This document shows positions 20,225-26,200 of a stretch of DNA of 64,000 nt, one piece after another (the first letter of the stretch is position 1; each line of letters begins with the position of its first letter). Where the stretch lies: positions 2,696,165 through 2,760,164 of the forward strand of contig CP064972.1 in assembly GCA_016699405.1 (NCBI GenBank), read 5' to 3'. The translations under genes were made by a program, and so were the position numbers. The notes beneath the pieces were generated by a model. That model saw only the letters and a list, made by a program, of their open reading frames with translations, searched no databases and was not told where the DNA came from. The stretch comes from Holophagales bacterium. Lineage in GTDB: Bacteria; Acidobacteriota; Thermoanaerobaculia; Multivoradales; JAGPDF01.

Positions 20225-23200
20225 GAGCGCTCCTCGAGCGCCGGCTCGGCACCGAGCGCTTGTCGGATCGGCGCGAGGGTCTCCGGATCTCCGGCCCCCG
20301 GCAGATCGATGGTCGCGTAACCCTCGACCTCGAGAAGGATCCGGCCGCTCCCGGCGACCAGGGCGATCGACGAGGTTCCGTCGGGCTCGCGCTGCGAGAG
20401 CGCGAAGATCGACTCGCCCGGTTCGGGGCGGGCGAGGAGCGCGACCCGGCCGAGCGCCCGCGGCAGGCCGAGGGTGCCGAGCCGACCGAGCTGATCGAGG
20501 CCGGCGGTCTGGAAGGCGAGCTCGATCCAGCGCGGCTCCATCTCGGTGGCGAGCTCCGCCGGCCGGTGATTCGGCGGCAGCGCCGGCGAGAGCTCGGCGA
20601 CGACCGCCTCGCCGACACGACGGGCACGAGCCACCACCTGGTAGGCGGGGCCGTGGAAGTAGACGCGATAGATCGCCTCGCTCGCGAGCTCGCTGGCGTC
20701 GGCGAGCTCGGGCAGGTCGAGCCGGCGAACCGGCGGGTTGGCGCCGGGCGCCGCGAGCCGGACGCGACCGCGGAAGTGCTCCGTCTCCTGAGAGGTCGCC
20801 TGGCCAGGAAGCGCCCGACGGCCGACCAGGAGGCAATCGGCGACGATCTCGTCGCGCTCCTGGCGGAACTGTCCGCGAACTTCGAGCGTCCGCGGCTCGT
20901 CACGGTAGAACTTGAAGGGGGCGAGGAACTCCAGCCGCTCGACCGCGGCGACCCGGCGCTCGGGGAAGAGCTGGCGGGCCGTCTCGGCGAACGCCTCGAT
21001 GCCCATCACTCCCGGGAGCACCGGCGTGCCGTCGATCCGGTGATCGTCGAGAAACGGCTGCTCGCGCGGATCGAGCGTCAGCTCGACGACCAGACCCTCG
21101 CGGAGGGTCAATCGGCGGGCGTGGCCGCGCATCGGACCTTGCGGTGCGCCGGCGTCGACGGCCTGTGGGTCGAGTCCACCTTCGGTCTCGCGCTCGTCGA
21201 GCATCGCGCCGAGCCTGCCGGCGACGACGATCTCGCGCGACGGTCCGCCGGCGGCGAGCTCGCGCCGCACCGCCGGGATGCCGAGCGAGGGCGGCAGGAG
21301 GTCGATGCCCGCGGCCTCGAGCAGCTTCGGAATCGATCCACGGCTGGCCATGCCGATCTCCGCCCAGCCGGTCCAGTCGAAGGCGAGTCCGAGCGTTCCC
21401 GGTTGCGTCGTCGCCAGCGAGGCGACGAGCTTGGCGAGGAAGTCGTTGGCGGCGGCGTAGTCGGCCTGACCGCCGTTGCCGAAGCGACCGGCGATCGATC
21501 CGAAGGTCACCAGGGCCCCGAGCGGTGCGCCGCGCAGCGCGCGGATCAGGTTGAAGGCGCCGTCGGCCTTGACGTCGAAGACGCGCGCGAGCTCCTCGTC
21601 GCTCTTGTCGGGCAGAAGGCGGCTGACCTCGAGGCCGCCGGCGTGAAGCAGCAAGTCGATCCGTCCACGCTCGGCGAGGGCGGCCTCGACCGCGGTGGCG
21701 ACCGCGGCGGGGTCGCGCAGATCCAGGCAGTGGTAAGTCGCGCGGCCGCCGGCGGCGCGGATGGCGTCGATCGCGTCGAGCGCCGCACGCTGCCGCTCGA
21801 GACGCGCCAGCTCCTTCTCGATCCGCGCCGGCGTGGCGCGTTCCCCTGAGGCGGAGAGTCGGGCGAAGAGCTCGAGCTTCAGGCCGTCGCGGTCGCTGGC
21901 GAAGCGGGCGAGGTCGGCGTCGGCCGGATCGGGCTCGGGGGCGAGATCGAGCAGGTGGAAGCTGCCGCCGTGGCGCGCCAGGTCGCGGACGATCGCCGCG
22001 ACGATGCTGCCGGCCGCGCCGGTGACGACCGCGACGCTGTCCGGGCCGAGGCTCACGCCGTCGTCGGCGTCGCGATTTCCGTCCGCCTCGGCGAGAAGCG
22101 GCGAGACCTCGACGGTCACGGTGAAGCGCTCACCGCCGGCGTGACCGATCTCGATCGCCCCCGGATCGCGCAGGGTTTCGTCGAGCAGCGCCTCGGCGAT
22201 CGCCGAGGCGTCGGCGGTCGACTCGAAGTCGACGACCTTGACGAGCCCGGCCGGCCGTTCGCGCGCCCAGGTCTTCGTCATCCCGCTGACCGCGCCGCCG
22301 AGCGGAGCGCTCGCGCCGCCGACGCCGTGCCGGCCTCCGAGGCGGGTGGCGGAGACGACGAAGGCGCCGGCGCGGCCCAACGGCTCGTAGAGGGCGCGCA
22401 ACACGGCGGCGAACGCCTTGACGCGCCGGTGTGTGGCGCGGTGGAAGCCGTCGAGGTCGAGCTCGGAGATGGCTGGCTCGACGTCGAGGGCCGGTAGCCA
22501 GTAGAGACCGTCGACTCCCTCGGCGGCGATCGCGGTGACGCGGGCCGCGAGCTCGTCGAGCGCGGCGTCGGCGTCGATCTCGCTGACCGCGACGCCGAGG
22601 GCGGTGAGCTGGGCGATCAGCGGCGCGGCGACGCCGCCCCGGTCCCCGGCGACCAGCACGCGCCGTCCCTGGCCGAGCTCGACGTCGGTTGCCTTGCAGA
22701 GCGACAGCGCGGGGCGCAGCACGGCGACCGGAATGCGGCGGCAGAACGTGCCCGCGTCGGGAGCCGGTGCCGCCTCGCTCGCCGTGGCTCCGGCAGGGGG
22801 GGCGGCGACGGTGGGCTCGGGCGGTGCCGCCGGCGAGGCGCCCGGTCGCAGGTCGGGCCGATGGTCGTAGACGAAGCCGATCGTCTTGGCAAGCGTCGGG
22901 AAGTCGCGCAGCTTGAGGTTCGGGTCGCGTGCGATGCCGTACTTCTCGCGCACGGCGGCGAAGAGCTCGGCCTGCTTGACCGTGTCGACGCCGAGGTCGG
23001 CCTCGAGGTCGAGATCGAGGTCGAGCATCTCCCTCGGATACCCGGTCTTCTCGGCGACCAAGGCAAGAACCGTCGCTGTGACCTCGTCCTCGACAGCGGT
23101 GGGTGCCGTCGTGGACGAAGAGGAGACGAAAGACGTCTGGGTAGGAGACCCGAAGGCGACCGCTCCCGCATTCGCCGAGGCGTCGACCTTCTCCTCCTGA

Positions 23201-26200
23201 GCGGAGGGAAGGATCTGGGTGGGGGCGGTCGCACCCGCCGCCGGCCGCAGCTCCGGCCGATGGTCGTAGACGAAGCCGATCGTCGTGGCGAGCGTCGGGA
23301 AGTCGCGCAGCTTCAGATTCGGGTCGCGCGCGATGCCGTACTTCTCGCGCACGGCGGCGAAGAGCTCGGCCTGCTTGACCGTGTCGACACCGAGGTCGGC
23401 CTCGAGGTCGAGGTCGAGCGCCAGCATCTCTCGCGGATACCCGGTCTTCTCGGCGACGAGAGCGAGCACGGTCGCCGTCACCTCGTCCTCGGCTTCCAGC
23501 TGGGGAACGGAGGAAGGCAAGACCAAGGATGTCTGGGTCGGTGACCCGGTGGCGACCGGCATCGCGGAGTCCGCCGTTCGGCTTCGCTCGCGACGCGCCG
23601 CGTCGTCATCCTGAGCGGTGCGGAGGATCTGGGCGGCGGCGGTCGCAGGCGCCGTCGGCCGCAGCTCCGGTCGCTTGTCGTAGACGAAGCCGATGGTCTT
23701 GGCGATGGTGGGGAAGTCGCGCAGCTTCAGATTGGGGTCGCGCTCGATCCCGTAGCGTTCCCGGATGGCGGCGAACACTTCGGCCTGCTTGACGGTGTCG
23801 ATGCCGAGGTCGGCCTCGAGATCGAGGTCGAGCGCCAGCATCTCTTTCGGATAGCCCGTCTTGTCCGCGATCAGTTCGAGCACCTGTTCGGTCACGGCGT
23901 CGGAGCTCGCAGAGGCGGCGGGAGCTGTGACAGCGACCGGCGTGGCGACGGAGGCCTGGCTCCCAGGCGGTACTGCGGCTGAAGTCGCGGCTAGTCCTTC
24001 CCCTGTCGGAACGTGGTGGACCTGCTTCGCGAGCGAGCTGCCCGCCGCCGCCGCGGGAGCGGGAGCGAGGCGAGCGAGGCCGCGGTCGACGACCCGCAGG
24101 GTGCGGTGCACGACCTCGATCGCCGGCTGCGGATCGCCGCTGGCGCGGGAGAGGAACCCCTCCCAGGTCGCGCGGTCGGCGATGCGGTAGGCGAAGCCGA
24201 GCTCGGCGGGGGTGCGATGCCGGCCGTCGCTCGTCGGGCTCCAGCGCAGCAGCGTCATGCTGATCTGCGAGCCGAAGCCGGCGCCGAGACGCAGCGCGTA
24301 GCGCACCGGGTAGCTGCCGCCGCGGGAGATGTTGAGCGCTCCCAGGTCGGGGTCGATCTCGCGGATGTTGGGCACCGGCGGGACGATGCCGGTCTCGAGC
24401 GACTTGATCGCCATCACGTCCTCGATCCCGACGGCCATCGGATGCCCGGTGTAGCCCTTGGTGTTGGCGATGACGATGCGGTTGGCCGACGAGCCGAAGA
24501 CGCGGCGCAGCGCGTCGATCTCGGCCTGGGCCGACCCGCCGCGTGCCGGGGTGTAGGTCTCGTGCGAGACGAAGACCATCTCCGTGGCGACGGCGTGACG
24601 GTCGATCCCCCAACGCGACTCGGCATCGGCGACGAGCTTCTCCATCATCTGCCCGATGTGCGAGACGTCGAGCCGGCTGCCGTGGAAGGCGCTGTTGGCG
24701 GTGACGGTCGACAGCACCTCGCAGATCGGCGCGAGGCCGCGCTCGCGCGCGGCACCGGCGCGTTCGAGCACCGCGGCGGCCGCGCCCATGCCGATGAGCA
24801 GGCCATGGCGGCGGCGGTCGAAGGGCAGCGCGGCGTCCTCGACGCGCTCGTCGGTGGCGGCGGCGCCGCTCGCCAGGAAGCCGGAGGCGAACCAGCCGAA
24901 GAGGTTGTCGCTGGTGATGTCGTCGGCGGCGATGACGATCACCCGGTCGCAGCGGCCGGCTCGGATCCAGTCCGAGGCGAGAGCGAATGCCTGGGTGGTG
25001 GTGGCGCAGGCGGAGTTGATCGCGGTGTTCGGGCCGCGGGCACCGATCGCCTCGGCGAACTGCGAGTGCCCCATCGACAGCACCTGGAAGAGGAATCGCC
25101 GGTCGAAGGTGAACGGCTCGGCGACGAGCTCGGCCTCGAGCGCGGCGATGCGGCGGTCGAGCTCGACGGCGGAGGTATCTCCGGCGGCGAGATTGCCGCG
25201 GAGCGCCCGCAGCTCCTCGAGGCGCTCGCGCCGCGAGCGTTCGCGGTGGAAGGCGTCCATCTTGCCCATCAACTGGTCGTAGCCGGGGAAGGCGGAGCCG
25301 AAGATCACGCCGGTGCCGTCGCGCAACTCCTCCGGCAGGCCCCAGCGGTCGGGCAGCAGCGTGCCGGTGGTGGTCGTCTTGTAGCGCATGACCAGCGGAA
25401 TGCCGGCGTCGCGCAGCGCGTCGATGCCGGCGCCGATGGCGAGCATCGTCGTGCGGTCGAAGGCGGCCGTGCGGTCGGCGGGGAATCCGAAGTCGCGCCC
25501 GAACTCGAGCTCCCCGGCGCGGGCGGCGAGCTTGATCACCTCGTCCGGGCTCTCGATCGTTTCGAAGCGTCCTCCCTCCTCGCTCTTGACCAGGCGGGTG
25601 ATCCGCTTCTCGACCATCGAACGGCGCAGCGCCGCCGGCACGGCACCGAGCATCTGCTCCCCGGCGAGCAGGCGGGCGAGGTTGCCGTCGTCGAAGACGC
25701 GCTCGGCGCCCGGCAGCCCGAGGGCGGCGCCGGTGACGACGACGGTGTCGTCCTTCACGGCGGACGCACCGGGTGCCGGAGCCGCGATGGGGGCAGCGGT
25801 CGCCGGGCTGCTCTCGCCCGAGGCGAGGGCGAGGCCCTTGGAAAGGAAGTCGACGAAGAGACGTCCGAGATCGGCGAAGCGATCGGACGGGACGGGCGGC
25901 AGGGTGCTCATGCGGGAGTCGCCTCCGGAGAGGTCCAGAGCGGCGGACGCCGTGGCGTGCGGCCGGGCGTCCGCTGCGGGAACCGGCGAGGACGCCGGGG
26001 ATGAAACGTCGGGTGGTGCCACGGCGACGGCGATCGGAGCGACCGCCTCGGGTCGCGCCGCGCCTCGCCCGGCGGCGTAGAGGCCGCAGAGCGCGAGGTT
26101 GAACGATCCGGCGTCGCCGAGCTTCGGGTGGTTGGTGGCGAGCGAAAGCACGTCGGGACGATCGCCGAGCACGTCTTCGACGAAGCCCTGGAGGGCGCGC

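Follow-up and report, generated by a model that had tools for sequence, protein, structure and literature searches.

The three tandem acyl carrier protein (ACP) domains of a synthase from a Holophagales bacterium have threonine in place of the serine to which phosphopantetheine is usually attached. The synthase gene lies in a 64-kb window (positions 2,696,165 to 2,760,164 of contig CP064972.1), by which is meant the whole stretch of DNA that was analysed. The same threonine recurs in related synthases, and comparative evidence suggests that it is probably a real 4'-phosphopantetheine acceptor served by a dedicated 4'-phosphopantetheinyl transferase (PPTase). To our knowledge, textbook accounts of fatty acid, polyketide and non-ribosomal peptide synthesis, together with the rules used to annotate carrier domains, all assume a serine acceptor.

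Carrier domains were located in the translation of the synthase, whose residues are numbered from the methionine at window position 28875 (translated span 20221-29055, minus strand). The Pfam model PF00550 (PP-binding) matches three stretches of the protein (76.3 bits against a cutoff of 20.8). They are repeats of about 84 aa with the consensus ...EKTGYP(K/R)EML.LDLDLEADLG(I/V)DTVKQAE..., placed as follows.

23656-23907, minus strand: carrier domain 1, aa 1657-1740, DLGIDTVKQ; Thr1694, codon ACC at 23794-23796
23242-23493, minus strand: carrier domain 2, aa 1795-1878, DLGVDTVKQ; Thr1832, codon ACG at 23380-23382
22843-23094, minus strand: carrier domain 3, aa 1928-2011, DLGVDTVKQ; Thr1965, codon ACG at 22981-22983

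The usual acceptor serine of the superfamily, in a (D/H)S(L/I) motif, is replaced by threonine in 3/3 domains. An earlier reading of this DNA, made from the sequence only, had reported this replacement and its ACC or ACG codons, and the minus-strand translation agrees on both. When the repeats were aligned using phmmer, the threonine fell on the DS(L/I) serine of solved ACPs, among them PigH (5y08), an Aquifex ACP (2ehs) and a Streptomyces ACP (2koo). The sequence-only reading had also likened the repeats to the ACPs of polyunsaturated fatty acid (PUFA) synthases, and indeed a carrier repeat matches the ACP region of the PfaA model TIGR02813 (E 3e-15). An AlphaFold2 model of carrier domain 2, computed with 65 homologues as input, has the ACP helical bundle (pLDDT 91.4), and helix II begins exactly at Thr38 in domain numbering. 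Foldseek superimposed this model on dozens of solved ACPs of the E. coli type with a TM score of ~0.8 and an rmsd of 1.3-2.5 Å. Clearly, the three carrier domains have threonine at the phosphopantetheine attachment position.

Other candidate acceptors were sought in the same domains. Alignment of 29 diverse family domains revealed invariant columns at G18, E31, L34, G35, D37, T38, K40 and Q41 and no conserved serine elsewhere in the domain, in keeping with the earlier statement that no alternative serine lies nearby. Thr17, in the KTGYP motif, was considered as the acceptor and rejected, as it is common to Ser-type PUFA ACPs. No G-x-D-S-[ILVM] motif was found in six frames of the 64-kb window. 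Tandem Repeats Finder reported no repeat here; the period of ~400 nt with divergent linkers is under its thresholds, and it is in the protein sequence that the repeats are plain. The three repeats are 79-92% identical to each other in pairwise comparison, so their three threonines cannot be counted separately as evidence, and independent support has to come from orthologues.

To this end 82 related loci were examined, consisting of the best 80 loci from a one-genome-per-species peptide-pattern scan, which gave more than 600 matching stretches, and two metagenome contigs. Threonine is present in 321/321 carrier domains, encoded by ACC (149), ACG (145), ACT (15) or ACA (12). Any of these codons could become a serine codon by a single substitution, yet 0/321 domains have serine. 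This invariance indicates purifying selection on the threonine itself. The hosts of the best 80 loci belong to the Acidobacteriota, Chloroflexota, Gemmatimonadota, Myxococcota/"delta proteobacteria", Actinomycetota (including cultured Amycolatopsis), Calditrichota, KSB1, Bacteroidota and Lysobacterales, and the hosts overall span at least 8 phyla. Because retrieval of the 82 loci had used the motif itself, the survey was repeated with the second ketosynthase domain (KS2) as an ACP-independent query. The DTVKQ threonine was found in 40/40 carrier domains that followed KS2 in these homologues, which were short proteins and fragments only; full-length architectures were taken from an exhaustive search and from the genome loci. 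The sequence-only reading had named two outcomes that would speak against it, namely a conserved serine elsewhere in the domain and serine-bearing homologues that expose this copy as decayed. Both were looked for and neither was found, the homologues having threonine.

Run against 1.84 billion representative proteins, the exhaustive search with HMMER returned 6,521 matches, 1,080 of them below 1e-30. Among the best 150 of the 6,521 matches, 124 carry DT(V/I)KQ domains, while 23 are classical PUFA-type proteins with an acceptor serine, mostly in DSIKR or DSIKK. The residue after the acceptor differs between the two types. Threonine is almost always followed by valine (425 TV against 9 TI) and serine by isoleucine (133 SI against 5 SV). 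Such a pairing is what steric compensation for the added methyl group would give, though a clade signature would explain it equally well. Two close relatives exchange the acceptor residue: P0197 has one array in which a DSIKQ domain precedes two DTVKQ domains, and P0202 has DSVKV in domains that otherwise resemble the threonine type (T-ACP). Tandem arrays hold 1-7 T-ACP copies. In protein P0141, six DTVKQ domains are followed by a seventh, divergent carrier-like domain (aa ~1149-1230) with DLGIDAVKQ, that is, alanine at the acceptor position; this is possibly a truly inactive domain in a T-ACP array.

T-ACPs also occur outside the architecture of the window synthase and its cluster type, called Type R in the literature. 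A C-terminal fused PPTase domain is found in 12/150 of the best proteins, all of them T-ACP synthases (P0176, P0186, P0190, P0213, P0224, P0231, P0238, P0245, P0251, P0259, P0263 and P0267). Their domain order, KS-AT-ACPn-KR-DH-PPTase as in P0231 (AT, acyltransferase; KR, ketoreductase; DH, dehydratase), is like that of the enediyne PKSE. Another protein, P0162 (4019 aa), combines a T-ACP array with an N-terminal NMO-type enoyl reductase. The threonine signature thus extends beyond Type R clusters, and the DLG(I/V)DTVKQ carriers are a large, widespread family and not a peculiarity of the Holophagales genome.

The window, which has a G+C content of 71%, contains the synthase gene as the second of a four-gene minus-strand operon. 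In order, the genes encode an acyl-CoA dehydrogenase (ACAD) family protein, the synthase, an ACC-like carboxylase and a PPTase. The ATG of the ACC-like gene overlaps the stop codon of the synthase gene (ATGA). The genes and the remaining synthase domains are as follows.

28904-30589, minus strand: ACAD family gene, operon gene 1, 561 aa, QQR72119.1 (Pfam Acyl-CoA_dh_N/M/1)
20221-28875, minus strand: iterative PfaA-like synthase, 2884 aa, predicted order KS1-AT-KS2-ACP×3-KR-DH (Pfam; NCBIfam TIGR02813)
27430-28854, minus strand: KS1 domain, motifs DAACAS (Cys215), HGTST and GHLKGA (Pfam and motifs)
26164-27054, minus strand: AT domain, motif GHSLGE (Pfam and motif)
24076-25623, minus strand: second KS domain, KS2, called 'CLF' in the literature (Pfam and motifs)
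21361-22032, minus strand: KR domain (Pfam)
20296-21105, minus strand: polyketide synthase-type DH domain, PKS_DH_N and PS-DH (Pfam)
15335-20224, minus strand: single-chain ACC-like carboxylase, 1629 aa, QQR72117.1 (profile matches)
14571-15317, minus strand: Sfp-type PPTase, last operon gene, 248 aa, QQR72116.1 (Pfam ACPS)

The product of the last gene matches the Pfam model ACPS (PF01648) with 56.5 bits against a cutoff of 25, and the identical database entry carries a PPTase annotation. It has the motifs GCDLE and WSGKECALKA, in which G-x-D-x-E and W-S-x-K-E-x-x-x-K are conserved. A search of the PDB with the single sequence gave no match and a profile was required; the profile matches Sfp (1qr0/4mrt) over residues 22-173 (E 2.4e-9) as well as EntD and human AASDHPPT. 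The gene is thus predicted to encode an Sfp-type (group II) PPTase with intact catalytic motifs. The sequence-only reading had described an adjacent Sfp-type PPTase. The enzyme type and the operon are as described, but the gene is two genes downstream, after the ACC-like gene, and not directly adjacent. Gene order and strand, examined by tblastn with the window proteins, are common to essentially all related loci. Of the 82 loci, 64 extend far enough beyond the cluster end to be tested for a PPTase gene nearby; 59 of the 64 have one no more than 1.5 kb from that end, in 57 of these on the same strand. From its linkage, and from its fusion to other T-ACP synthases, we infer that the window PPTase transfers phosphopantetheine from CoA to the T-ACPs.

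Taken together, these results suggest the following mechanism. The three domains would be functional acyl carriers of a distinct, ancient T-ACP subfamily with the signature DLG(I/V)DTVKQ, in which the 4'-phosphopantetheine arm is carried by the threonine hydroxyl at the N-terminus of helix II, replacing serine. The arm would be attached by the dedicated Sfp-type PPTase, encoded at the end of the operon or fused to the C-terminus of other synthases. The resulting holo-T-ACPs would serve the two KS, AT, KR and DH domains, the ACAD family enzyme would probably act with them as enoyl reductase or desaturase, and the co-encoded ACC-like carboxylase would supply malonyl-CoA. The whole would be an iterative PUFA-synthase-like 'Type R' secondary-lipid synthase. 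Threonine is favoured as the acceptor because it is invariant across phyla along with the whole of D-T-V-K-Q, which an unmodified scaffold has no reason to keep, because arrays of 1-7 copies resemble those of PUFA synthases, and because the close relatives P0197 and P0202 swap serine and threonine at this very position. The PPTase is almost always linked to the synthase and sometimes fused to it, and neither the cluster nor the 64-kb window encodes another carrier, so threonine is probably the natural attachment site. Modification of threonine, and specialisation of the PPTase for it, are what we infer from this pattern.

Several observations weigh against this reading. The S36T form of E. coli ACP has the same substitution at the same position, though an engineered one. 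It is not modifiable by AcpS, is non-functional and cannot replace ACP, so at least the canonical AcpS refuses threonine (PMC3340395). The threonine of T-ACPs, by contrast, appears to be a naturally selected state with its own Sfp-type PPTase. An alignment of Sfp and the fused PPTase of P0202, the only two Ser-linked sequences compared, with 30 cluster PPTases and 12 T-linked fused ones contained no conserved column that tells the T-linked enzymes from the Ser-linked. A precedent for threonine-linked phosphopantetheine was not found in the openly searchable literature, subscription-only papers being outside its scope. Finally, it is conceivable that the operon PPTase acts on a different carrier that was not seen.

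The failure of E. coli S36T also lends some weight to a different explanation, in which the repeats are pseudo-ACPs, structural or scaffolding elements that are never pantetheinylated, and the synthase works with CoA thioesters or with a free carrier in trans, for example the housekeeping AcpP. The first operon gene belongs to the ACAD family, whose members usually act on CoA esters, which is also in its favour. A scaffold, however, has no need to keep threonine, and the D-T-V-K-Q around it, unchanged at precisely the attachment site in at least 8 phyla, nor does it account for PPTase linkage in 59/64 loci and PPTase fusion in 12 proteins. The lack of another encoded carrier, the mixture of Ser and Thr domains in the single array of P0197, and a copy number of 1-7, as in the functional tandem ACPs of Pfa synthases (PMC3098273), argue in the same direction. 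The sequence-only reading had left pantetheinylated threonine and pseudo-ACPs side by side; the comparative evidence clearly favours the former, as a probable modification, and makes the latter unlikely.

It is less likely again that threonine carries some other CoA-derived or unrelated group, or that attachment is to another invariant residue such as Lys40. Several residues of the motif do differ from their counterparts in PUFA ACPs (TVKQ against SIKR). However, the linked enzyme looks like an ordinary Sfp-type PPTase with Mg- and CoA-binding motifs, the lysine at +2 is also present in Ser-type PUFA ACPs (DSIKR) and so is not specific to the threonine family, and the KS, AT, KR and DH domains use thioester-bound substrates. 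There is practically no chance that the threonine results from sequencing or assembly error or from mutational decay. The window does derive from a metagenome-assembled genome, but threonine is present in all three copies with two different codons, the frame is unbroken across 2884 aa, and every orthologue carries threonine. The intact frame and the homologue survey (321/321 and 40/40) rule out pseudogene, decay and assembly error alike, as the sequence-only reading had held for sequencing error. A modified threonine served by its own PPTase accordingly stays the preferred explanation among these. The switch from serine to threonine, with the paired change from isoleucine to valine at +1, may insulate the pathway from the housekeeping AcpS or ACP hydrolase.

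The window synthase was compared with known systems. The tandem ACPs of PfaA (Shewanella, Moritella and Schizochytrium ORFA) have the signature LGIDSIKR. The window ACPs share with them the N-terminal ...EKTGYP..ML..D.DLEADLGID... and tandem arrays with Ala/Pro-rich linkers, and in both systems the ACPs lie between KS/AT and KR/DH and a dedicated Sfp-type PPTase is present. They differ at the acceptor and the next three residues, T-V-K-Q in the window and S-I-K-R in PfaA, and in the C-terminal half of the domain, where the window ACPs have a distinct FAA(I/V)RE.Y.I.RD.NLKLRDFPT. The window operon is also without the PfaB, PfaC and PfaD partners; among the operon neighbours, which are ACAD, ACC-like carboxylase and PPTase, Pfam detected no NMO or FabA-type domains. 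TIGR02813 (PfaA) is the best NCBIfam model for the synthase, with 941.2 bits, under the cutoff of 1010.1. The synthase therefore falls outside PfaA on its whole-protein score, its ACP signature and its partner genes.

A closer match is the Type R secondary lipid synthase of Shulse & Allen (2011), defined as KS-MAT-CLF-ACP(3-6)-KR followed by a PPTase gene (PMC3098273). Type R clusters were described from Koribacter versatilis, where an ACC gene separates the synthase and PPTase genes, and from Solibacter usitatus, Roseiflexus and Elusimicrobium; their product is uncharacterised (PMC3098273). In Pfa synthases, more tandem ACPs raise product throughput (PMC3098273). The window cluster has the Type R domain order followed by ACC and PPTase genes downstream on the same strand, and the phyla of Type R hosts agree with those of T-ACP loci. 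By its architecture the cluster is assigned to the Type R secondary lipid synthases as a new member. The published definition omits the upstream ACAD gene and the DH domain found in the window operon. It also names the second KS 'CLF', whereas KS2 in the window retains the Cys-His-His residues as Cys1289 (NSACAT), His1438 (SHETYT) and His1478 (GHPMAV); KS2 may be a catalytically active second ketosynthase instead of a CLF. Neither the word serine nor the word threonine occurs in the Type R paper (PMC3098273), and no description of the T-ACP motif, of Ser-to-Thr carriers or of follow-up work on Type R was found in the searchable literature. The cluster type is already known, but its threonine-type carrier appears to be undescribed there.

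The enediyne PKSEs SgcE and CalE8, with the order KS-AT-ACP-KR-DH-PPTase, offer a further comparison. Some T-ACP synthases (P0231) have this exact order with ACPn. Enediyne PKSEs have a single Ser-type ACP and are not known to have a second KS. Their PPTase is built into the synthase; in the window operon it is a separate gene.

In 68/82 loci the synthase gene is preceded by an ACAD gene on its own strand. The closest NCBIfam models to the window ACAD protein are acryloyl-CoA reductase and prolyl-PCP dehydrogenase, all scoring under their cutoffs, and the protein is a candidate for the missing enoyl reductase or for a desaturase that uses carrier-bound substrate. An ACC-like gene lies between DH and PPTase in ~41/82 loci. 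The window copy matches biotin carboxylase models only in their C-terminal half (model ~204-445) and is without the Biotin_carb_N domain and the glycine-rich ATP loop, while it retains the EAMKME biotinylation motif (BCCP, Lys418), ACC_central and the carboxyltransferase. It may need biotin carboxylase activity in trans. Some ACC-like orthologues, such as that of locus L002 (1856 aa), have a full biotin carboxylase.

In most genome loci the synthase is one long open reading frame (ORF). In the two metagenome contigs, L001 and L002, it is split into separate KS, AT, KS, single-ACP, KR and DH genes, which are probably the product of assembly frameshift errors and not a dissociated system. The L001 cluster is flanked by a WS/DGAT wax-ester synthase and an AMP-binding enzyme. 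In the window, an MgsA/RarA-like AAA+ ATPase gene (30646-32229, plus strand) is divergent from the operon. Beyond the operon and this gene, an ORF at 32467-33483 (minus strand) has a weak match to IS200-like Y1 transposases (24.4 bits against a cutoff of 23). The operon is followed directly downstream by a deoxyhypusine synthase homologue (12352-13335, minus strand), which adjoins an isocitrate/isopropylmalate dehydrogenase gene. An ORF of 750 aa at 4416-6668 (minus strand) has coding-like codon bias and no Pfam match.

Mutating the acceptor serine is the standard way to make a dead carrier, and S36T of E. coli ACP has been used for exactly that. The T-ACPs contradict a near-universal serine rule, and they flag a cluster that is very common in soil bacteria of the Acidobacteriota, Chloroflexota, Gemmatimonadota and Actinomycetota. 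With less assurance than for the threonine of these domains, we lean towards the broader view that O-phosphopantetheinyl-threonine is a natural and widespread modification, borne by a T-ACP clade of at least 8 phyla and hundreds of species and charged by co-evolved Sfp-type PPTases orthogonal to AcpS and ACP hydrolase. Modification of the T-ACP threonine, if real, would extend phosphopantetheinylation chemistry to a new residue. PPTases that tolerate or prefer threonine would then be predicted, and these could be orthogonal labelling tools beside the Sfp and AcpS tags. It would also account for the way in which a secondary lipid pathway can stay separate from primary metabolism.

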